From a virus (taxonomy: Duplodnaviria > Heunggongvirae > Uroviricota > Caudoviricetes), in IMG/VR virus record IMGVR_UViG_2695420871_000006: a DNA stretch of 30,728 nt; one strand, given 5' to 3'. The notes under the pieces were generated by a model. The model was given only the letters and a program-made list of their open reading frames with translations, made no database searches and was not told where the DNA came from. The translations under genes were made by a program, and so were the position numbers. The first letter of the stretch is position 1. The number at the start of each line of letters is the position of its first letter. Shown here in pieces: positions 1 to 9,039 of this stretch.

Positions 1-195
1 GAGCTGCATGACAAAGTCATCGGGCATTATCTGAACATAAAACACTATCAATAAGTTGGAGTCATTACCGGCTGGCGGAGCCTTCAGTCTATTTTAATGC
101 CGCCAACGGGCCGTGGAGAATTGCTCTGGCCTATTATCAGGAAGGGCCGGTAGATTATAGCGCGGGTAAACGTGGAACGTGTATAGCGCGGCGAT

Positions 196-268
196 TTTTT
201 TGATACCGATTTGCATTTCATTTGATACCGCTGAAAAACGCCGATACGCAACTTATTTGATACTAAAT
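196..268. repeat. Three direct copies of TTTGATAC(C/T) at 199-208, 221-230 and 256-265; candidate transposase end-binding sites of the prophage right end
   Basis: Repeats read directly from the sequence. The first two are 22 bp apart, the spacing typical of MuA-type end sites (inference). Confidence 0.4.
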
Positions 269-309
269 CGGCGCTTTTCTTTTGAGTTTTAGAATGAGTT
301 TTTAAGCGT

Positions 310-1047
310 TCATTCACTCTCTTTCAAACCAGTTTTAACTGTTTGTGGTTTTGGGTAAGGCTGGACTTTGAATAGCTTTGTGTTAAGGCGTTTTCTGGCT
401 CTCTTGTCCAGAAACCGGATGTAACGAAACTGACGGAATTTATGAACACTGGCTCTGTCGATATTAGCCCGCAGATGTTCACCTCGCTGTCCTCCTCGTT
501 TGATTGCATTCTTGCAAATCTCGTGATACCACTCGCCATCAAGTTCATAGAATGTTGTTTCATGACTGCCTACATAATCAAAATTGCTTGCCTGGTACAC
601 GACACCAAGACAGCCACAACGCTCATCTGCAAACGACTGAACCCACTGCACCTGCGGATAAAGTTGTCTGATTAGTTTGAGCGCGTAACTGATTGCCCTT
701 GATTCAGAGTTTCTCGGCATACAGTCATGCAGCCATAACCGGTTAAGCTCCATATATTCGCGGTTCTGCGTGCCAGTTACGACGCGTGCACCATTGTTTG
801 GATTAAGGGCATAACCCCATTGCATTACGCCAACCAGCTCCCGTTCTGAAAATATGCCCAGATGAAGGTAGGAATTATTTACGAAACGATGGCTGTAATG
901 TTTATTGACGACGACCAGCCGGGCCAGCCAGCAACTTATTGTCTCAACCCGTAACTCACGGGAGCCATAACCGACGATATTGTCGTTATAGTGAATAAGT
1001 TCAGGCGTGCTGATGATACGGGATGTAACTTGCTTTCTGTTCCCCAC
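310..1047 (-). CDS. mom: Mom-like DNA (adenine) modification protein, anti-restriction. Start uncertain: GTG at 1045-1047 is proposed, but the frame is open up to 1242.
   Basis: Large ORF overlapping and immediately downstream of com, and the last gene before the phage end as in Mu. The proposed GTG lies in the 3' arm of a hairpin with AAGGAAA in the loop. Confidence 0.7.
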
Positions 1048-1201
1048 GACAGGATTTCCTTGTGTATGTGGGGTGCTCTGTGGCGCTCTGAGATGTGATT
1101 TGATTGAGGGTTTTACAGCGCGGACATTTAACTTCCAGATAACTGAAGCTGGCTCGTGCCAGTAGCTTGTTACAATGTCGGCACCGTATGTTTCGATACA
1201 T
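1001..1201 (-). CDS. com: Com, zinc-finger translational activator of mom (about 66 aa from ATG 1199-1201; the track ORF extends to a TTG at 1246)
   Basis: Protein [34 protein letters not shown]... has a CxxC...CPRC zinc finger resembling Mu Com as recalled from memory. AGGAGG (revcomp of 1212-1217) lies 10 nt upstream of the ATG. Confidence 0.8.
1042..1073 (-). promoter_or_regulatory. mRNA hairpin (CCCCAC, 20-nt loop, GUGGGG) sequestering the putative mom GUG start and SD; candidate Com-responsive translational switch
   Basis: Perfect 6-bp GC stem read from the sequence. Matches the established Com mechanism of unmasking the mom translation initiation region. Confidence 0.5.
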
Positions 1202-1248
1202 GGCCGCATAACCTCCTGCTTTGTTGTTGATATCTTTATCACTCAATC

Positions 1249-1334
1249 GATCGACAAAAACGATCGATTTGATTTATTTAATTGATACAACAAATAACAC
1301 GAAATGTCATTAGCGAAAATTTATGAGTTTGATC
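1249..1334 (-). promoter_or_regulatory. GATC cluster upstream of com (GATC at 1249-1252, 1262-1265, 1331-1334; two CGATCG palindromes 13 bp apart); candidate Dam-methylation/OxyR-type control region of the mom promoter
   Basis: GATC sites read from the sequence. By analogy with Mu Pmom, where upstream GATC sites confer Dam dependence. Confidence 0.4.
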
Positions 1335-1457
1335 ACTAATTTTAAACGGTGCTGTAACGCATAAGTGCTGAATGATTGTACATTTGAATACCGCAAAGCA
1401 AACAAATCAACTAATTTATAGAAGTCAATTGGTTAATTGCCAGCGTAAGAGGCTGCT

Positions 1458-1751
1458 ATGGACAATCATGTAACGACGAGAAATCGAAAAATGATTGAAA
1501 ATGCGGAAATCTATAATGATTATTTTTCCGATTATTCAGATGCCTGCAAATACAGTTCGAGTGCGGGAGAGTTCATATGCTTCAACTTTTTTATTAAATC
1601 TTATGTTTTTCCTCCACAGCAAGAAGATGGAGGTGTGCCACCTCCTGAAATCACTTTGCACCGTATAGCCTCCGTCTCAATGATGGAGCAACAGGCTAAT
1701 GAGCTGTATAGCATTCTGGGAACGATTCTACAAAAGCGTGAATCGGACTAA
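1458..1751 (+). CDS. Hypothetical protein, 97 aa, AT-rich moron-like gene divergent from com-mom
   Basis: ATG with AAGAGG 6 nt upstream. Visibly AT-rich coding sequence in a GC-richer phage. No recognisable motif. Confidence 0.5.
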   Translation: MDNHVTTRNRKMIENAEIYNDYFSDYSDACKYSSSAGEFICFNFFIKSYVFPPQQEDGGVPPPEITLHRIASVSMMEQQANELYSILGTILQKRESD

Positions 1752-1832
1752 TGATACCGGTTCATTTGCCTGCCCGGATGGGGAAGCAGGATTGACTGCT
1801 CCATAAGCAGCTATATTTCTGAATACGAAATA

Positions 1833-1861
1833 CTATCCAGCGATTACATATGGCTGGATAG
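1833..1861. other. Perfect 9-bp inverted repeat CTATCCAGC/GCTGGATAG with 11-nt spacer, between convergent genes
   Basis: Read from the sequence. Could be a terminator for minus-strand transcripts (followed by U-rich UAUUUCGUAUU on the minus strand) or a protein-binding palindrome. Confidence 0.45.
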
Positions 1862-1885
1862 CGGCAAAGATGTTTTCATTAGTGT

Positions 1886-1920
1886 CAAACCGGCAGAGGA
1901 CACCACCGGTTTGTATTGTT
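1886..1920 (+). terminator. Hairpin CAAACCGG (12-nt loop) CCGGTTTG followed by TATTGTT; candidate intrinsic terminator for the plus-strand ORF 1458-1751
   Basis: 8-bp perfect stem plus a U-rich tail on the plus strand. Confidence 0.4.
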
Positions 1921-2173
1921 ACATCATGGTACTGTCAGTTCCGGGCTGAGCCGGGTCTGGTTGCTCTGGCTGCGCGTCGGTTTTCGGCTCATTATCAGCA
2001 TCACTGGCCGCAACTGCTGGCCCAATAAGTTTTGCCAGCACTTCATCAACGTAAGTGTCGATTTGTGCCTCAAAATCCTTGCGGACCTGCGCTTTCAGCA
2101 ACTTATTTACTTCACCGGAATACAGTGCCTGTTTTACCAGGTCTTCAGTGACGGTGCCTTTAATTTCTGGCAT
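1919..2173 (-). CDS. Hypothetical small acidic protein, 84 aa, with Pro/Gln-rich C-terminal tail
   Basis: ATG 2171-2173 with AGGAGG (revcomp of 2180-2185) 6 nt upstream. Estimated net charge about -8. Confidence 0.6.
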   Translation of the reverse strand: MPEIKGTVTEDLVKQALYSGEVNKLLKAQVRKDFEAQIDTYVDEVLAKLIGPAVAASDADNEPKTDAQPEQPDPAQPGTDSTMM

Positions 2174-2208
2174 GTATATCCTCCTTATGCGGGAATAAAG
2201 CCCTGCAA

Positions 2209-2391
2209 TCAGGGCTGGGTCGGGTCTTTTGGGAGCGGAGTTACCTGCGCTGTTTTACTGAGTTTTTCAGCTGCTGCGTCCTCAATTTTGCGGCGAACAT
2301 AATTTCTGATGGCCTTATAACCACCACTCACCAGATATAACGCACATACTGCCGTGCAGAAATACAATAAAATAAGCTGTAAAAATGTCAT
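2209..2391 (-). CDS. Hypothetical small membrane protein, 60 aa from ATG 2389-2391: one N-terminal TM helix followed by a basic segment
   Basis: GGAGGG immediately upstream of the ATG. Hydrophobic FLQLILLYFCTAVCALYLV followed by KAIRNYVRRK (positive-inside). The track TTG start at 2403 is less likely. Confidence 0.6.
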   Translation of the reverse strand: MTFLQLILLYFCTAVCALYLVSGGYKAIRNYVRRKIEDAAAEKLSKTAQVTPLPKDPTQP

Positions 2392-2406
2392 TATCCCTCC
2401 CAATTA

Positions 2407-2433
2407 TTGACATGGTGTTGACACCGGTAATAT
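2407..2433 (+). promoter_or_regulatory. Candidate sigma70-type promoter on the plus strand: TTGACA (2407-2412; second copy 2418-2423), 15-bp spacer, TAATAT (2428-2433)
   Basis: Consensus hexamers read from the sequence. No plus-strand ORF lies downstream before the terminator at 2488-2529. Confidence 0.3.
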
Positions 2434-2487
2434 CTGTTAGGTAAAAAGGTGCACTGCATTTTTTGCTTTGGATATAACGATCTTTTT

Positions 2488-2529
2488 GCCGCCGGTTTCT
2501 TGTTTTCCCTTACCGGCGGCATTTTTTTA
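2488..2529 (+). terminator. Strong rho-independent terminator on the plus strand: GCCGCCGGT (15-nt pyrimidine-rich loop) ACCGGCGGC followed by ATTTTTTTAT
   Basis: 9-bp GC-rich perfect stem followed by a T7 run on the plus strand. On the minus strand it is followed by AAAAAG, so it is not a terminator for the esterase gene. Confidence 0.7.
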
Positions 2530-2535
2530 TCCTGC

Positions 2536-4590
2536 TTACGCGTTATTCACTTCCACCACGATACTGTCAATCAGTACCGGGTAAGTCGCATTTTTAGTGA
2601 TATCGGTCACGCGCAACTTGTCTGCCGTAAACGTGCCGACCGGAGACTGCGACAGCATGAATGGTGTCCCGTCCTTACCATCAATGACCGGCGTCACCTC
2701 AATACTGTTGTTACCGGCAAAACGGAAGCCCAGCGTATGCCATTCGTTATTAAATGCACCGAATGACCCCAGTTTCGTGTTTTGCGCCGTATTGCCCTTG
2801 TGGTACATCACGTTAAGGTCTGTGGCATCGCTCTGTACATAGAATGACGCCAGCAAGTTATGACCTGAATTACCTTCCAGCATGACACCCTGAGGCAGTG
2901 AAGAAACCGGCCAGTATAGCGCCAGTGCATACCGATTAGCCGTAAGCGCACCATCAAGTTTAAAACGACAACTGACAAGACCGCCTTTACCCAGGAGGTC
3001 TGCGCCATTACCAGCATCATGCTCAAGGTACCAGGAGGCTCTTCCTGTTTCCTTGGTCAGTTTCATTGCCTTACCCCCGCTGGCTCCGGCATCATCCACG
3101 ATTTGAGCCTTGCCACCTCCGGCAGCCCAACCCTGTGGTGTCAACCGTCCTTCAGACTCAGATGCCCGGTAAGCAAATAGCGTACTCATCGTCGTGGTGT
3201 CTGCGGGTGGCGTGGACGGTTTTGATGGTGTATCAGGTGACGGCTTCTCATCCGGTGGTGTCACGGTCTGCCCGCGCATCAATTCAGCCGTGCGCCCTGC
3301 ATGGAGCATAATAGCTGAGGCCAGACGGTCTGAAATGACGCCCCTGCGTGCCCATGAGCTGAAATGGCTGTCACGCTGTGTCGAAACAAAACTGCCCTGG
3401 GTTCGGGATGCTGCACCGTAATACCCGACAGCCACAATATCCGGGTCTTCCGCCGGAGCATTCGTTGGCGTGCTCTGTCCATTCTCATCCGTCAGGAACG
3501 GTACAAAGAAAATTTTCTGTGCTTCCTTGCCTTTGTAGCCACCGTATACTGCCTCATATTTATCGGTGCCAGCGTTTTTCCAGTAATACGTGGTATCACC
3601 GCAAATCCACGGCACCGTGGTGGCATTTCCACTCACGCACTGCGCAGCAAGCGGAGCCAGGTCAGTTCTGAACTGCTGAACCATGGCCGTGAATAAACTA
3701 TTATGCTGCTGGCTTCCTGAGGCAAGGTCTGCCTCTCCCTGCATCCAGACCACAGCCAGAAGTTTGTTTTTCGGGTTTTTCGCCAGCGCGACTTTGGTGC
3801 GGCTTACCAGGTCCTGATACAGAGGTTTACCGGCCCCCCAGCGTGAAGAATCAGCGGAAGCACCGCTGGCCTCACTGAATGAGCCGTCGGCTCCAGTGGT
3901 GAATGCTGACCCGCCACGACAACAGGGCACCAGAAGTATCCCCGCATTCTGTGGGATATAGGGAAGCAGTTTTTTGGCAATATGCAACCCCTGACTGACA
4001 GTCCCGTACTGGCCTTTTGCCAGATCAGCTTTCGGGTGGTTTATCCCGCTCATATCCTGAACATCATGCAGGCAGTGGTCTGCCGGAATGATGTCGTTGT
4101 ATGTACACGACGTACCGTTGGGCGTTACCGTACTGCGGCGTGCCAGTTGCTTAATGCGTGGGTCCGGGCGGTCAAACGAATCCGGTAACGGCAGCCCCTC
4201 GCCGTAGGCCATGCCATTTGACTGACCCGCGAGAATGACAACAAAGTAATATTCCGGCTCTGAACTGCTGCCATTCGTGCTACCGGAAGGCCCGGCGTTA
4301 TCCGGTGCATTCCAGTCGGAGGGCGTGAGCGTTCCGGCCACGTCAGATGTGATTGGAATGATGCCAGTCACGCCTGAACTGGTGATTTCTGCACTGGGAT
4401 TACCGGATACCGGCATTACCCATAATGGCTCTTTCGTGCTGAAGCGGATCACGCAGTCTGCGAAGGTGATCCCCCCTTTATTACCCGAAGGGCGGAAAGG
4501 GCTTTCAATAAATGCCACCGTGCCACCGGCAACCTTGACTGAAAACTCTCCGGGCATGGCGGAGAGCATTTTCCACTTGGAGTCTGACAT
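2536..4590 (-). CDS. Prophage cargo carbohydrate O-acetylesterase (SGNH/SASA family, NanS-p-like sialate O-acetylesterase) with N-terminal domain, Pro-rich linker and C-terminal lectin-like domain; 684 aa
   Basis: Motifs LAGQSNGMAYG, CCRGGSAF and VVWMQGEADL match the GQSN / WxQGE(S/A)D signatures of the sialate O-acetylesterase family. Linker PPDEKPSPDTPSKPSTPP. Sits downstream of tail fibre genes as nanS-p genes do in EHEC prophages. Confidence 0.65.
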   Translation of the reverse strand: MSDSKWKMLSAMPGEFSVKVAGGTVAFIESPFRPSGNKGGITFADCVIRFSTKEPLWVMPVSGNPSAEITSSGVTGIIPITSDVAGTLTPSDWNAPDNAGPSGSTNGSSSEPEYYFVVILAGQSNGMAYGEGLPLPDSFDRPDPRIKQLARRSTVTPNGTSCTYNDIIPADHCLHDVQDMSGINHPKADLAKGQYGTVSQGLHIAKKLLPYIPQNAGILLVPCCRGGSAFTTGADGSFSEASGASADSSRWGAGKPLYQDLVSRTKVALAKNPKNKLLAVVWMQGEADLASGSQQHNSLFTAMVQQFRTDLAPLAAQCVSGNATTVPWICGDTTYYWKNAGTDKYEAVYGGYKGKEAQKIFFVPFLTDENGQSTPTNAPAEDPDIVAVGYYGAASRTQGSFVSTQRDSHFSSWARRGVISDRLASAIMLHAGRTAELMRGQTVTPPDEKPSPDTPSKPSTPPADTTTMSTLFAYRASESEGRLTPQGWAAGGGKAQIVDDAGASGGKAMKLTKETGRASWYLEHDAGNGADLLGKGGLVSCRFKLDGALTANRYALALYWPVSSLPQGVMLEGNSGHNLLASFYVQSDATDLNVMYHKGNTAQNTKLGSFGAFNNEWHTLGFRFAGNNSIEVTPVIDGKDGTPFMLSQSPVGTFTADKLRVTDITKNATYPVLIDSIVVEVNNA

Positions 4591-4894
4591 CGTCTTTTCT
4601 GCCTGTTTCTGAATTAAACAGAGTCAGAATAACAACCGCTGATAAATATGTGTTTTGCGGAAATTCAAAAAAAGCATCACGGTACTTTTTGTGACGGAGC
4701 CGGTTAGGCAGGAACATAACGACAAAGGATGGACAGGCCAATACGATAACCGCATATTACCGGCTTATAATTGATTTAACGATTCATGACGCTGCGGTCA
4801 GCATCTGAAAATATGCGTTATTTCAGAAACCCCTTGCCTGTATATGGCGATATTATTATTCCTGTTTTTATCATTGATTTACATGGTGATGTTT

Positions 4895-5416
4895 ATGCAA
4901 CTGATTAATGTTAAACGATATTACCCGGAACAAAAACCCTTTGGTAATGATGTACAGTATTTTCAAAGTGAAGATGGTAAGGATTTCTATGAGTCCCTGC
5001 CATTATTCACCAAAAAATATAAACTTTGCATAACCCCTGACAGCGGTGTTATCTGCTCAATATCACAGGATGCTTCGGCGCTGTATCCTGCGGGTTTTTC
5101 CGTTGTTGAGACAGACGAATTACCTGAAGGTACTGATATTTCAGGTAACTGGAAGTTTGATAATGGTGTCATCTCACAACTCCCGGTTAACTATACCAAA
5201 AAAGCGGAAGCACTGCGCCAGTCATATCTTAATCAGGCATATGAAAAGATTAATGACTGGAGAACTGAGTTACAGCTGGGCACGATTAGTGATGAAAACA
5301 GAGCTGCGCTTACACGATGGATGAAATACATCAGTCAGGTGAAAAAAATGGAACTACCAGCGATTAAAAACAAAGCTGAATTTGACGCCATTAAATGGCC
5401 GGAGAAGCCTGAATAA
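4895..5416 (+). CDS. Tail fibre assembly chaperone (Tfa/U-like), opposite strand to the fibre gene; start at ATG 4895 proposed (track ORF starts at 4844)
   Basis: C-terminus ...TRWMKYISQVKKMELPAIKNKAEFDAIKWPEKPE is typical of Tfa proteins. The gene is AT-rich by eye. Confidence 0.75.
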   Translation: MQLINVKRYYPEQKPFGNDVQYFQSEDGKDFYESLPLFTKKYKLCITPDSGVICSISQDASALYPAGFSVVETDELPEGTDISGNWKFDNGVISQLPVNYTKKAEALRQSYLNQAYEKINDWRTELQLGTISDENRAALTRWMKYISQVKKMELPAIKNKAEFDAIKWPEKPE

Positions 5417-5419
5417 CAT

Positions 5420-5442
5420 AAAGGGTGCTTATCGCACCCTTT
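5420..5442. terminator. Bidirectional intrinsic terminator between convergent tfa (+) and tail fibre (-): AAAGGGTGC (5-nt loop) GCACCCTTT with flanking A/T runs
   Basis: Perfect 9-bp palindrome with a GC core, T-run downstream on both strands. Confidence 0.6.
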
Positions 5443-5450
5443 TCCTTTAA

Positions 5451-6362
5451 TCAGACGGATGAAACTGTGCGCCAGGCATTACCGATATATATCTGCACCG
5501 GACGGTAATAAACGCCTCCGATATTATCGGCTGAACTTTTCCCGGTATCCTGCACGTTAATACCTGAAAGCATACAACCAGAAGGTGCACCATAACTCCA
5601 GGACATTTCATTACCTCCGGGTGAATGGTAACTCTGGGCACCAAGCTGAACGTTGCTAACGTATTTGTTATCAGCAGTAGCTTCAGTCATACCGGAGGTA
5701 ATGTATATGTCCTGCGTCCCGTCAAAAGGAACGCCATTAATATTTCTTGGGGTGGAGAGTTTATTCGCGGCAACGGCGGTGCCGTCCGATGGCAGAGCAT
5801 TCGCCGCCTTATTCACCGTTTCCCGTAAACCGACGTTATCGATAAAAGCCCCTTTATCCGGAATGTCTGCGCCGTTCTGCTCCCTGCGCAGGTAACGGTT
5901 ATCACCTTCGCTTTTGCTGTAAACATCCAGATTATTACGGGCGGTTCCCTTATTCTCCAGGTCGGCGAGATTCTGATCCTTCGCCAGGGCATTAACGTCA
6001 CCGGGACCAAGACTGTTTTTTGTGGCAAGCGTCCCCAGACCAAGATAACCACGGGCCAGACGCTGGGCCTCCGCACCGGCATCAGCAATTTCTTTCAGGT
6101 TATTTTTCCGGGAAAAGGCATTCGCAGCGATAATGGCTTTAATGGACAGCGTAAGCTGGTTTAACTGCGCCTTATCCGGCTGAATACTGGCTTCAGCCAG
6201 AATATTCAGCAGTTCGGCCTGGAGAATATTCAGCCAGTCCTGACCAATCCAGCTGATACCTTTTTGTCCGTCACCTTCGGTAAACCAGGTTGTGGTATTA
6301 CTCTGCGCCGGTGCCAGCGCAGGCATATTCGCCACGCCGGAATTATTATCAACATGAAACAT
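5451..6362 (-). CDS. Tail fibre protein (Mu S-like), 303 aa
   Basis: Follows the baseplate gp47/gp48 homologues. Conserved fibre N-terminus MFHVDNNSGVANMPALAPAQS... and a Gly/Ser-rich tip. Confidence 0.8.
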   Translation of the reverse strand: MFHVDNNSGVANMPALAPAQSNTTTWFTEGDGQKGISWIGQDWLNILQAELLNILAEASIQPDKAQLNQLTLSIKAIIAANAFSRKNNLKEIADAGAEAQRLARGYLGLGTLATKNSLGPGDVNALAKDQNLADLENKGTARNNLDVYSKSEGDNRYLRREQNGADIPDKGAFIDNVGLRETVNKAANALPSDGTAVAANKLSTPRNINGVPFDGTQDIYITSGMTEATADNKYVSNVQLGAQSYHSPGGNEMSWSYGAPSGCMLSGINVQDTGKSSADNIGGVYYRPVQIYIGNAWRTVSSV

Positions 6363-6922
6363 TAAATAGTCTCCTCTTCATGGCTGTTTGCATAAACGTA
6401 AATAAACGTCTGCCATGCAGGCTTATAACGGTTCAGAATACATTCCAGCGCACCGCCTTCATAAATACGCAGCGGCGTGAGAATATCATCCAGCACATTC
6501 ATATTCCGGTAGCCGGTTTCACTGTTAATCGTGACAATACTGACCCACAGCGAATCCGGTGAGGGCTGAATGTCAATCTGATAACCAAACTCCGCCGCAA
6601 ACCGGATATAAAATTCACGGTTCAGCGAGGGCTTCATCCGGTATTTATTTCCGGCATAACGCTGTCGCTCCGTGAGGGTGGCTCCGGCCATATCACACTC
6701 GGGAAGCCCGAGATAACGCTCCCAGTCTTCCAGCAGCAGGCGCGACGTGTCAGGGAAACGCTCGGCAAGCAGCTGTTTACCCGTCCAGGATACACGCGCT
6801 GTCGAATGACTGAGGCCCAGACATAATGATGCCAGTACGGATGACGGACGCTTGTCCCATGCCAGCCCGTCAGGCAGTAACTGCAACAGGGCGCGCTGAT
6901 GTGGGGTCAGGGTTACAGCCAT
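6362..6922 (-). CDS. Baseplate/tail protein, Mu gp48-like (DUF2313-type)
   Basis: Position between baseplate J and the fibre; overlaps the upstream gene. Confidence 0.7.
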   Translation of the reverse strand: MAVTLTPHQRALLQLLPDGLAWDKRPSSVLASLCLGLSHSTARVSWTGKQLLAERFPDTSRLLLEDWERYLGLPECDMAGATLTERQRYAGNKYRMKPSLNREFYIRFAAEFGYQIDIQPSPDSLWVSIVTINSETGYRNMNVLDDILTPLRIYEGGALECILNRYKPAWQTFIYVYANSHEEETI

Positions 6923-7995
6923 GTGATTTCTCCCACCGTCAGCAGCTCACTGTCTCCCGCCTGAACTGACGTCAGCGGACTGCGCACTTCAAAATCCTCC
7001 AGATTTTTCACCCCCGCCACAGCACGCCAGAAAGACGACGGCAGAACCAGACCGCCGGGCCGGGATTCGTTGTATAACAGGTCGGTCAGCGCCTGTTTTA
7101 CGGCCGCCTGATTCTCCGGTGTTTTCGGGATGATCCTGATGCTGAAGGGCACCGGCTTATTGGTCAGTTTAAACACGGTCACCGTCGGCCCCAGAGGCTG
7201 TCCGACAGGCTGGCCGGTCGCCGGATCATCATGACTGCGGATATAATCCGCCACCCGCTGAACATCACCGTCACCGGGGAAAATATCCGGGTTATTATCC
7301 TGAACAAACGTTACCCCCACGCTGCCCGCCTGCGGCCATTCCGGGCGGCACCATGCCCGCGTTACGCCCGGCACTTCACGCGCCCAGCGTTCAAAATCAT
7401 ACTGCGTGCCGCCGGACGGTGGATTCTGCACCCGGAAAACCAGACGGGAAAGCAACTCCGGCACGGTTTCCACATCCGCACCACCGGTGATCCCCGTTCC
7501 GGTCACCGTGGCCGTCTGGTTGATCCCCGCCTGCGGTGTGATAAATGTCAGTTTTGTCCCTGCCGGGGCATTCCCCGCACGACCGGCACTTTCGGCTTCC
7601 ACACTGACATTCAGCGTACCGGCCTTACCGGTCAGTGAGGTGGTGATACGGTAAACCACGCCATCACTTCGCTGGAGAAGCACACCTTCCTTGATCCCCG
7701 CATCCGTGGTCAGCATCAGCTGAACCGGCCCGTCCCCCCGAGAGGCAGGCTTACGCATGACGCCCCAGAATGCACAGTGTTTCAGCAGTTCGGCTTCATC
7801 GGCTTCGGTCGGGATGATCTGACGCGCAATCCAGGCCAGATGCTCATGCTCCTGAGCAGATAACCCTGCCTGAGCGTAAGCAATGGCATTCAGGGTGGTT
7901 TCATTCACACCCGGCTGCGAGCCGGGCAGGCGCTGGCTGATATCCTGCTGTGTCTGCGTGATTAACTGTGCCAGCGGTAAAGGCTGATAAGGCAT
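6913..7995 (-). CDS. Baseplate J-like protein (Mu gp47-like)
   Basis: 360 aa; synteny; TAATG stop/start overlap with the upstream gene. Confidence 0.8.
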   Translation of the reverse strand: MPYQPLPLAQLITQTQQDISQRLPGSQPGVNETTLNAIAYAQAGLSAQEHEHLAWIARQIIPTEADEAELLKHCAFWGVMRKPASRGDGPVQLMLTTDAGIKEGVLLQRSDGVVYRITTSLTGKAGTLNVSVEAESAGRAGNAPAGTKLTFITPQAGINQTATVTGTGITGGADVETVPELLSRLVFRVQNPPSGGTQYDFERWAREVPGVTRAWCRPEWPQAGSVGVTFVQDNNPDIFPGDGDVQRVADYIRSHDDPATGQPVGQPLGPTVTVFKLTNKPVPFSIRIIPKTPENQAAVKQALTDLLYNESRPGGLVLPSSFWRAVAGVKNLEDFEVRSPLTSVQAGDSELLTVGEITWL

Positions 7996-8432
7996 TACTC
8001 CCCCTTAAGATCAGCATAAAAAATCATGGGCCTCACTGAACCATCAGGCAGGGTTATGCGCACCGAAAGCGCCAGCCGCGCGTGCCCCACACGTTCTGCA
8101 TGACAGACCACGGATGACGCCACGCCATCCTGACTGAGCCAGCCCAGCGCCTCATCCGCATAGGCACGGGCACGGCTTATCACGGAGGCCAGCGTTTTTT
8201 CCCGGCGGAGAAGCCACAGACGGGAGCCAATGGGACGCGGGCGAAAACTGTCTCCCCACCATCCCCGGCGGTCACGCGTACCGTCAGGGATTTCATCCGA
8301 TGCCAGCGCCCGGCGGTCAGTAAACAGCGAAATCAGAACGGCCGTCAGCAGACTGTCATCCGTCAGCAGGTCGGCACCGTTCAGTTGCAGCGAACCGCAC
8401 CCCTGATCCCATACAATTGCAATATCAGCCAT
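7995..8432 (-). CDS. Baseplate wedge protein (Mu gp46-like, GPW/gp25-like); start at ATG 8430-8432 (track ORF extends to 8576)
   Basis: MADIAIVWDQGCGSLQLNGADLL... is typical of GPW-family proteins. The longer upstream extension overlaps the previous gene. Confidence 0.75.
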   Translation of the reverse strand: MADIAIVWDQGCGSLQLNGADLLTDDSLLTAVLISLFTDRRALASDEIPDGTRDRRGWWGDSFRPRPIGSRLWLLRREKTLASVISRARAYADEALGWLSQDGVASSVVCHAERVGHARLALSVRITLPDGSVRPMIFYADLKGE

Positions 8433-9039
8433 TCTCCGGCGCTCCTGTCTTACTGCCTTTGCCGTTATCCTGATGCACATGGCCGGAATAGGTGATCCCG
8501 GCAATAACGGCATCAGACATCGTGAACAGCCCGTCTGATTTACCTGTACCATCAAGCACGAAATTACCCTTAACATGCAGGTTTTTATCCACCGTCACAT
8601 TGCCCGTAAAGGTGGCCTCCGGCGTATCCACCCGCATCCCCTCATCGGCGTAAATCTCCAGCATTTTGCATGTCACAATAATGCGACCATCCTTTGTTAA
8701 CCGTATCCGGTGCCCCTCATGGTGATACACCCCCGTATCTCCGGCTGTGAGTCCGGTCGGGCGGCTGCGCCGGTCTTCCACCACAAGCACCACAGTCTGA
8801 TCCCGCTGTCCGCCCAGACAGGCAAAAAAGGTTTCCGCACCCGGCAGGGGAACGCTGATCTGCCCGTACTGCTGGGGACGCTCCACATCATCAAAGGTTT
8901 CGCCGTCCATGCCGGTGAGCTGCACATTCTGCATTTTCAGTTCGTCATGTGTGCCGGTCAGAACGCCCCGGCCAAACAACAGGCGAATACCGCGCGTTAC
9001 CGGGGCAATCAGGCGGCTGAACACTTCATCATTCATCAA
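8425..9039 (-). CDS. Baseplate assembly/spike protein V-like (Mu gp45-like)
   Basis: 204 aa; synteny. Confidence 0.75.
   Translation of the reverse strand: MMNDEVFSRLIAPVTRGIRLLFGRGVLTGTHDELKMQNVQLTGMDGETFDDVERPQQYGQISVPLPGAETFFACLGGQRDQTVVLVVEDRRSRPTGLTAGDTGVYHHEGHRIRLTKDGRIIVTCKMLEIYADEGMRVDTPEATFTGNVTVDKNLHVKGNFVLDGTGKSDGLFTMSDAVIAGITYSGHVHQDNGKGSKTGAPENG

Follow-up and report, generated by a model that had tools for sequence, protein, structure and literature searches.

How does a Mu-like prophage come to carry a tail fibre gene and the gene of the cognate assembly chaperone, tfa, tail to tail on opposite strands with no intact invertase gene nearby? This arrangement lies in the window analysed here, a 30,728-nucleotide stretch of viral DNA (IMG/VR record IMGVR_UViG_2695420871_000006), and a first-pass annotation made from the sequence alone had taken it for a frozen or rebuilt remnant of an invertible host-range segment. 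The prophage itself is clearly Mu-like, with gp46-48 baseplate genes and a com-mom right end arranged as in Mu, the domains PF07409, PF04865, PF10076 and PF25680 in these regions, and synteny with both Mu and the Escherichia coli O157 prophage Sp18. We consider it likely, with a probability of roughly 85%, that the window represents a Mu-like prophage of the Sp18 type in which one old, illegitimate deletion of ca. 870 bp has permanently locked a host-range switch resembling the G segment. The "frozen" part of the earlier description is therefore borne out by gin-positive relatives that keep the missing parts in place, by documented inversion and by an orphan gixL crossover site, while nothing suggests rebuilding rather than one deletion followed by decay.

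In intact relatives, a 1.38-kb segment between inverted gix sites comprises the variable fibre part Sv, a two-way terminator, one tfa gene and the alternative variable part S'v. A Gin-like serine invertase encoded beside the segment flips it and thereby joins either Sv or S'v to the constant part of the fibre, Sc. Lost with the deletion were gin codons 1-169, gixR and ca. 80% of S'v (see the table below). Mu has a Fis-dependent recombinational enhancer towards the 5' end of its invertase gene, and any enhancer at the equivalent place would, by analogy, have been lost as well, given that nothing of the 5' part of gin remains. With no more than one gix site, inside the fibre gene, and two stubs undergoing decay left, inversion is impossible, and the phage is confined to the Sc-Sv fibre. 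The gene of this fibre is predicted to be transcribed as part of the late tail operon ending at the terminator hairpin, with tfa opposing it from the other side.

Table. Features of the locked host-range locus and its surroundings (positions in the window; aa, amino acids).
Feature	Position	Strand	Remarks
DUF6645/SASA carbohydrate-esterase gene	2536-4590	minus	cargo; PF20350 (E 9e-67), PF03629 (E 4e-13)
3' stub of gin-like serine invertase gene	4680-4744	minus	65 bp, last ca. 21 codons (helix-turn-helix end), decayed
Deletion junction	4744/4745		..GGCCAATAC-GATAACCGC.., break between the two
3' stub of S'v (alternative fibre C-terminus)	4745-4808	plus	64 bp; nearest is the STEC299 S'v end (..VTAYYRPIQYLINGSWRTAGST*)
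tfa, tail fibre assembly chaperone	4895-5416	plus	173 aa; ORF open from 4844; Mu U-type
Two-way intrinsic terminator hairpin	5420-5442	both	inside the 34-bp spacer 5417-5450, between tfa stop and fibre stop
Fibre gene	5451-6362	minus	303 aa, Mu S-type; full-length match to phrog_1833 (E 1e-161)
Sv, variable C-terminal fibre part	5451-5819	minus	ca. residues 182-303; once within the invertible segment
Orphan gixL crossover site	5820-5845	minus	TTATCGATAACGTCGGTTTACGGGAA; in frame within the fibre gene, encodes ..FIDNVGLRE..
Sc, constant N-terminal fibre part	5846-6362	minus	homologous to Mu Sc; 97-100% identical across relatives

The fibre combines the N-terminal baseplate-attachment/Sc domain of Mu S (residues 1-198 align to Mu S 1-191; phmmer against 5YVQ_A, E 1e-43) with a Mu S-like C-terminal tip (residues 228-302 align to Mu S 434-503, E 0.003). 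This tip belongs to the P2 H / Mu S type and shares 54-59% identity with P2-like H and SfMu S' tips. The fibre had been called short for its family, which is true in comparison to Mu S (504 aa) but not within the Sp18-like group, where 293-303 aa are typical. Constant and variable parts meet at the in-frame gixL, downstream of which identity among relatives falls in alignments of the fibre gene. The site agrees with Mu gixL (TTATCCAAAACCTCGGTTTACAGGAA) at 22 of 26 positions, including an identical central TC, and lies in the same codon context. It is the one residual gix site that the search suggested by the first-pass annotation recovered: no second site was found in the 30.7-kb window with up to three mismatches allowed. 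Nor does the window contain long inverted repeats, which form pairs of 182 nt (or 86 + 50 nt) in the relatives. Searches with a relative's proteins (tblastn) detected no second copy of Gin, Tfa, Sv or S'v anywhere in the window beyond traces of the Gin and S'v stubs. The window thus lacks the intact invertase, the two inverted gix sites and the alternative C-terminal cassette of a functional Gin/Cin/Pin-type switch, and the earlier statement that invertase, second tfa and alternative fibre C-terminus are all missing is correct for intact genes but overlooked the gin and S'v stubs.

The convergence of fibre gene and tfa across a 34-bp bidirectional terminator is as originally described with regard to reading frames, spacer and hairpin. 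The hairpin folds with -18.8 kcal/mol on the plus strand (z -5.3) and -20.6 kcal/mol on the minus strand (z -4.6) and is followed by a U-rich run on both. The reading frame 4844-5416 matched PF02413 (Caudo_TAP; E 1.5e-20) with 74.1 bits, far above the curated cut-off of 22.1, as well as phrog_136, and its product is homologous to the solved structure of Mu U (PDB 5YVQ_B, E 4e-16), which places it in the Tfa family. It shares 29-36% identity with Mu U, Mu U', SfMu Tfa and P2-like G, and sequence comparison does not clearly assign it to either Mu U or U' (33-36% identity to each). Translation most likely starts at 4895, given that the match to the family sets in at residue 16-18, that the RefSeq start is equivalent to this position and that a GGTGA Shine-Dalgarno sequence lies upstream. 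The gene is indeed AT-rich (38-41% GC versus 50-62% in adjacent tail genes). It is the sole tfa of the segment and lies on the same strand as the lost S'v.

The missing parts are found in place in gin-positive relatives. AST46, 97-3250, Z869, STEC299, SCU-171 and Sakai Sp18 all have the gene order fibre (minus), tfa (plus), S'v (plus), recombinase (minus) and DUF6645 (minus), in which the S'v cassette, a gix site and the gin-like invertase gene separate tfa from the DUF6645 gene. The recombinase of AST46 and Mu Gin share 74% identity. Descent of the window from such an Sp18-type segment is evident from its colinearity with the gin-positive relatives on both sides of the gap and from the remnants of the lost genes. 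That the intact segment inverts can be seen in two O157 genomes, 97-3250 and 2-6-2, with otherwise identical prophages. The 1.38-kb segment of the former is 100% identical to the reverse complement of the latter, this identity stops exactly at the central TC/GA of gix, the two orientations switch precisely at gixL, and both encode a Tfa of identical protein accession. A comparison of orientations in related prophages had been proposed at the outset, with stable relatives devoid of inversion sites as the outcome that would speak against a former switch; the O157 genomes, showing both orientations, gave the opposite.

Since the intact segment carries only one tfa, one of the two orientations that it normally adopts makes this gene and the fibre gene converge. 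This is in fact the commoner state, seen in 184 genomes compared to 15 with the other orientation (ca. 92% of assemblies), though clonal EHEC lineages inflate these counts, which refer to Sakai/97-3250-type cassettes only. The convergent arrangement is therefore not a product of freezing, as had been supposed. Similarly, the idea that cargo now fills the former S'v/gin space has to be abandoned. A module of DUF6645/SASA esterase, DUF1378 and DUF826 genes lies between gin and com in every gin-positive relative, with the DUF6645 gene directly downstream of gin there too (loci L002, L003, L007-L010 and L016), and the space has simply been deleted.

Compared to 97-3250 and STEC299, alignments show ca. 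862-873 bp to be missing at the junction, and 304 bp remain between the DUF6645 gene and tfa, as against ca. 1.17 kb in gin-positive relatives. On one side, tblastn matched 29 residues of AST46 Gin (162-190) to 4766-4680 (E 1.5e-4), and gin homology is limited to 67-68 of 573 bp in all locked loci. The stub of the window additionally carries a premature TAA of its own (4704-4706). On the other side, a weak S'v trace (4728-4769, tblastn) is found, and the frame of the S'v stub is broken by a 6-bp and a 2-bp deletion, both of which also occur in M18 and CI5.

Nine complete E. coli genomes and eight IMG/VR contigs carry the same junction, at no fewer than seven insertion sites, i.e., the locked lineage spreads. 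Junction and stub indels occur together in JE86-ST02/ST05 (in citF), S1-CAM-01-A (in bcsA), CI5 (in xdhA), M18/M3/M1 (beside a type I R gene), 600029 and HCP4S3_I4 (IS1-truncated) as well as the eight IMG/VR contigs, while the prophage of the window abuts ompG/IS1. No match to the exact junction was found among GTDB species representatives. The shared junction and shared indels point to a single origin of the deletion, and the divergence of 5-7% between the stubs of different lineages argues that it is old and that the lineage is still mobile. At least three Sv alleles are found behind the same junction. This is a natural, transmissible lineage that has irreversibly lost host-range switching and nevertheless spreads, which bears on the worth of the switch to the phage.

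We infer that the Sc-Sv fibre is functional in the locked state and that tfa is still in use, which would require plus-strand transcription independent of the late operon. Alternatively, tfa might be a silent relic in the locked orientation, with the Sc-Sv fibre folding without Tfa or borrowing one from another resident prophage. We regard this as possible but on the doubtful side. The gene is antisense to the late operon with a strong terminator in between, and the intact system co-transcribes tfa with the fibre gene only while S'v is in place. Moreover, no sigma-70-like promoter above shuffled expectation was found on the plus strand upstream of tfa in the window or in three gin-positive relatives, so that the proposed expression of tfa is without sequence support. 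A recognisable Mu C-type activator site (TTAT-N6-ATAA, as in Mu Pmom) is absent upstream of tfa and com in the window, and Rfam gave no match in the window at its gathering threshold. A promoter candidate spanning the junction (TGGACA-17 nt-CATATT, 4730-4758) scores 9 of 12, with three such matches found versus 4.2 expected. Its -35 element lies in the gin stub and its -10 element in the S'v stub, and both are unchanged across all locked lineages. In one version of the reading in which tfa has its own promoter, the deletion itself may have created this one.

Against a silent relic, tfa and the fibre gene are full length and uninterrupted in all ten locked loci that cover them, while the adjacent stubs carry frame-breaking changes. 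The Sv tip is, furthermore, homologous to the tips of Mu S and P2 H, which in their own phages depend on a chaperone, as summarised in PMC9608196. In Sakai, where the orientation is convergent, ECs4990 (tfa) and ECs4991 (S'v) reportedly both rise 2.1-fold upon entry into stationary phase (PMC2241611), and this microarray result suggests that a transcript exists on the tfa strand. The dN/dS ratio of tfa among locked lineages (0.10-0.16) was rejected as a decisive test for selection in the locked state. With a dS of 0.2-0.4, far above the stub divergence, the low ratio largely reflects alleles imported by recombination and not selection since locking. A joint reading that we put forward only tentatively is that one tfa serves both tips, which in the prevalent orientation would need antisense expression from a promoter of its own, and that the locked lineage drops switching and instead diversifies its host range by recombination. 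The locus draws attention to the single chaperone gene of the Sp18-type segment, which opposes the fibre gene in ca. 92% of assemblies.

With regard to the origin of the deletion, it is very improbable that the invertase itself made it by recombining gix with a pseudo-gix site in a site-specific reaction. At the junction, 20 nt (4744-4763) show 70% complementarity to gixL, but this match is no better than other chance pairs in the same list and the junction shows no meaningful microhomology. The end points lie in the 3' ends of gin and S'v, and we rejected a Gin-mediated event because gixR is internal to the lost DNA and at neither end point. Still harder to credit is a gin-less convergent layout that is ancestral, with gin and S'v acquired by insertion in the relatives. 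The layout is evidently stable, being found in many genomes and viral contigs, but the window contains the 3' ends of gin and of S'v, each truncated and with a broken frame, as well as a gix site without a partner, and the gin-positive form is both the majority (ca. 224-233 genomes with relatives versus nine with the junction) and consistent with the layout of Mu. An assembly artefact, with the 86-182 nt inverted repeats that flank the segment in relatives collapsing to mimic a deletion, deserves practically no credence given the identical junction in nine independent complete genomes and eight viral contigs with 5-7% divergence around it, and given that repeat collapse would not place end points in the 3' ends of gin and S'v.

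An illegitimate deletion in an Sp18-type segment is thus our preferred explanation, and the locked form represents a degenerate version of the system already described in Sp18. The switch is known for Mu (G/Gin) and in its Sp18 version, and our main result is a clean explanation and not a discovery. The window and Sakai Sp18 share gp46-48, a 303-aa fibre, convergent tfa, DUF6645, DUF1378, DUF826, com and mom in the same order. Their Sc parts are 97% identical, gixL is identical and the two-way terminator lies at the same position. In contrast to Sp18, whose region consists of ECs_4989 (fibre), ECs_4990 (tfa), ECs_4991 (S'v) and ECs_4992 (DNA invertase), the window has no gixR, retains only 65 bp of ECs_4992 and 64 bp of ECs_4991 and cannot invert. 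Its tfa and Sv alleles share merely 69% and 78% nucleotide identity with those of Sakai. The invertible host-specificity region of Sp18 has been described as distinct from that of Mu (PMC2669165).

Similarity to the Mu G segment (S, U, U', S', gin) extends over fibre N-terminus, gix, tip, Tfa and, in the relatives, the invertase, and the logic of a constant part joined to variable parts with a terminator between opposed genes is the same. However, the Mu segment comprises 3,059 bp with two chaperones, U and U', as opposed to 1.38 kb with a single tfa in the Sp18 type. The fibre of the window lacks ca. 240 aa of the Mu Sv shaft, a three-gene cargo module separates gin from com in the Sp18-type family, and the switch of the window is destroyed. 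In laboratory gin-defective derivatives of Mu, the loss of Gin fixes the orientation of the G segment and hence the host range. Unlike these, the locked form is a natural lineage in which one crossover site and the alternative cassette are gone too, so that invertase provided in trans could not rescue it. For annotation, convergent fibre and tfa genes without a nearby invertase may indicate a locked switch, and this can be confirmed by finding stubs together with an orphan gix site. We note that a Mu-like prophage of Citrobacter braakii ATCC 51113 similarly carries just one tfa-like gene, which is opposed in orientation and placed between the end of the fibre gene and a fibre fragment that is inverted. 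It also has an invertase as well as inverted repeats, and the N-terminus of its fibre shows 73% identity, but it differs by a 472-aa fibre, a DUF4376-type chaperone, at least three gix-like repeats and an invertase that is still intact.

The fiber locus of this Mu-like prophage represents a known type of invertible host-range system in a degenerate form that is locked in one orientation. The window holds the late, right-hand portion of the prophage and reads on the minus strand, with the tail fiber assembly chaperone gene (tfa) as the sole plus-strand gene of the stretch from gp46 to mom (see table). The fiber is a true Mu S homolog (residues 1-198 against Mu S 1-191, E 1e-43) and its residues 228-302 align with 434-503, the tip of Mu S, which leaves it without ca. 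240 residues of the Mu shaft, and Tfa matches Mu U of the solved fiber-chaperone complex 5YVQ (E 4e-16). As the first-pass annotation had described, the two genes converge across a two-way terminator: their stop codons are separated by 34 bp that carry a 9-bp GC-rich hairpin with a U-rich run after it on either strand, and this hairpin is strong both ways (-18.8 and -20.6 kcal/mol; z -5.3 and -4.6). The tfa region is indeed AT-rich (38-41% GC). The tfa ORF is open from 4844; the family match and a GGTGA ribosome-binding site both indicate 4895 as the start, as does the RefSeq annotation of a near-identical prophage. The 17 in-frame codons ahead of this start (4844-4894) form a hydrophobic stretch, MAILLFLFLSLIYMVMF, in a frame that is also open in STEC299, M18, CI5, and the locked-lineage locus L024; this extension is probably untranslated, since no Shine-Dalgarno sequence precedes the ATG at 4844. 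At mom, a mechanical ORF of 310 aa (310-1242) joins the gene to an in-frame upstream extension overlapping com, compared to the 245 aa annotated for Mom in relatives.

Features of the fiber locus and its surroundings (window positions)
Feature	Position	Strand	Remark
gp46	7995-8576	minus	
gp47/Baseplate_J	6913-7995	minus	
gp48	6362-6922	minus	
Fiber gene	5451-6362	minus	303 aa
gixL (left crossover site)	5820-5845		TTATCGATAACGTCGGTTTACGGGAA; within fiber gene; 22/26 positions as in Mu gixL
Terminator hairpin	5420-5442		between fiber and tfa stop codons
tfa	from 4895	plus	
S'v 3' stub	4745-4808		
gin 3' stub	4680-4744		
Former gin stop to DUF6645 start	4591-4679		89-bp spacer
Cargo module	1870-4590		
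DUF6645/SASA esterase	2536-4590	minus	
com	about 1001-1201	minus	
mom	310-1047	minus	
Host flank	1-181		prophage right end at about 182

Relatives of 4600-6950 were found by megablast in 233 of 5,426 complete E. coli genomes. Prophages with an invertase gene (gin+) in AST46, 97-3250, Z869, STEC299, SCU-171, and Sakai (Sp18) share the gene order fiber (minus), tfa (plus), S'v (plus), serine recombinase (minus; 74% identical to Mu Gin in AST46), DUF6645 (minus), DUF1378, DUF826, com, and mom. S'v is a fiber C-terminal fragment, the alternative to the variable part (Sv) that follows the constant N-terminal part (Sc), and inverted repeats of 182 nt (or 86+50 nt), none of which are present in the window, bracket Sv-tfa-S'v. 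O157:H7 2-6-2 shows the reverse arrangement, in which Sc and S'v are fused (295 aa), tfa comes next in the same direction, and Sv is the inverted fragment. The Tfa protein accession is identical in 2-6-2 and 97-3250, and the segment of 97-3250 is 100% identical to the reverse complement of that of 2-6-2 over about 1.38 kb, ending precisely at the central TC/GA dinucleotide of both crossover sites, a pattern that is the signature of Gin-type site-specific inversion. An invertible host-specificity region with genes unlike those of Mu has already been noted in Sp18 (PMC2669165). Among complete genomes, 184 have a contiguous Sc-Sv junction of the Sakai/97-3250 type and 15 a contiguous Sc-S'v junction, counts that take in clonal EHEC lineages. 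Because the segment has a single tfa, fiber and tfa are convergent in one of the two states that it normally takes, and convergence is not the product of freezing that it had been taken for; nor is the fiber short for its family, as 293-303 aa is the usual length in the Sp18-like group. Another gin+ relative, E. coli 89-3156, has a frameshift annotated in its invertase gene (locus L009, 3981-4540), which would be a second, independent route to loss of the switch.

Aligning the window with gin+ relatives maps a loss of about 862-873 bp at 4744/4745 that comprises gin codons 1-169, the crossover site gixR, and about 80% of S'v. On one side of the gap, window 4591-4744 aligns collinearly with the DUF6645-gin spacer and the final ~21 gin codons (3' end peptide IGLSILCRYVPA versus IGLSTLYRYFPASPAPSPKVP in AST46, each ending at the stop); on the other, the S'v stub does so with the final ~24 codons of the cassette, is nearest to that of STEC299, and is disrupted in frame by 6-bp and 2-bp deletions. 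The supposed absence of invertase, second tfa, and alternative C-terminus therefore holds for intact copies, with no further gin, tfa, Sv, or S'v sequence detected in the window by tblastn, and fails for the two stubs. A search for residual gix sites recovered gixL, with the central TC and codon context of Mu gixL, as the sole gix-type site in 30.7 kb; with a lone site and without a recombinase, this segment cannot invert. The stubs, this orphan gixL, and inversion in gin+ relatives bear out the earlier view of a frozen Mu-type segment. A deletion made by Gin is rejected because gixR lay inside the lost DNA, at neither end point; the loss was an ordinary illegitimate event. Among locked lineages (without gin and with the same junction), the 89-bp spacer shows 1 difference and the adjoining 129 bp of stubs 6-9; the spacer may hold an esterase promoter or leader.

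Cargo had been proposed to fill the former S'v/gin space, but all gin+ relatives have it too, downstream of gin. While com directly follows gin in Mu, Sp18-like prophages carry a module of DUF6645/SASA carbohydrate esterase, DUF1378, and DUF826 between them. Comparison of the window with gin+ loci L002, L003, and L016 places this module throughout the Sp18-like group. In lambdoid phages, the nanS-p region downstream of stx may be similar to this cargo.

Seven complete genomes span the junction: JE86-ST02 and JE86-ST05 (prophage in citF), S1-CAM-01-A (bcsA), the mouse strains M18, M3, and M1 (adjoining a type I restriction R gene), and CI5 (xdhA). Two IS1-truncated remnants (E. coli 600029, L014, and HCP4S3_I4, L015) and 8 IMG/VR contigs (2/8 metagenomic) have it too, and one of these contigs, L024, shares the gene layout. 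The window prophage adjoins ompG and IS1 sequence at its right end, a site unlike those of 9/9 complete genomes with the junction. Junction and stub indels are common to all copies, the stubs are 5-7% divergent between lineages, and at least three Sv alleles lie behind the one junction: the window type (303 aa), that of L024 (303 aa, 80% identical to it), and that of M18, CI5, and the locked locus L020 (293 aa). The simplest reading of these sequences is a single ancestral deletion, continued infection and transposition to new sites, and later exchange of Sv/tfa alleles by homologous recombination. We infer a single origin of the deletion, and the locked form is an old, mobile lineage. IS1 cuts both remnants directly past the S'v stub; the HCP4S3_I4 remnant has lost all structural genes, with B, A, ner, and the repressor gene directly following IS1. 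The near-identical JE86-ST02 prophage lies in citF, versus ompG/IS1 for the window; it gives no megablast alignment at 2364-2512 (21-bp length difference) and is 99% identical elsewhere.

Sc-Sv is the sole fiber that the window can make, and its gene terminates at the strong terminator with tfa on the opposite strand. We infer that this state gives infectious particles, since the locked lineage kept spreading and since new lysogens of a slow inverter should mostly keep the infecting particle's orientation, in line with the 184:15 bias. At 54-59% identity, the Sv tip resembles the P2 H and SfMu S' tips, and it aligns with that of Mu S; fibers with these tips require a Tfa according to the summary of published work (PMC9608196). 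Given this need and the uninterrupted tfa in 10/10 locked loci containing it, next to decayed stubs, we lean toward tfa being still in use. Its low dN/dS (0.10-0.16) cannot be credited to selection in the locked state, because tfa dS far exceeds stub divergence. The locus as a whole is well accounted for. Simple promoter scans for the single, opposed tfa were negative in the window and in gin+ relatives; the single match upstream of tfa, TGGACA-17-CATATT at 4730-4758, straddles the junction and does not exceed chance expectation. In a Sakai microarray (PMC2241611), ECs4990 (tfa) and ECs4991 (S'v) were both 2.1-fold up at stationary-phase entry, a weak hint that the convergent state has a plus-strand transcript.

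The one-chaperone design is not confined to E. coli, because a Mu-like prophage of Citrobacter braakii ATCC 51113 (L026) also has one opposed tfa-like gene inside an invertible fiber segment. Its 3998-7868 region encodes a 472-aa fiber, an inverted fiber fragment, an intact invertase, and a tfa-like gene with DUF4376 and a weak Caudo_TAP match, together with at least three gix-like repeats, and may represent a multi-site version of this design.
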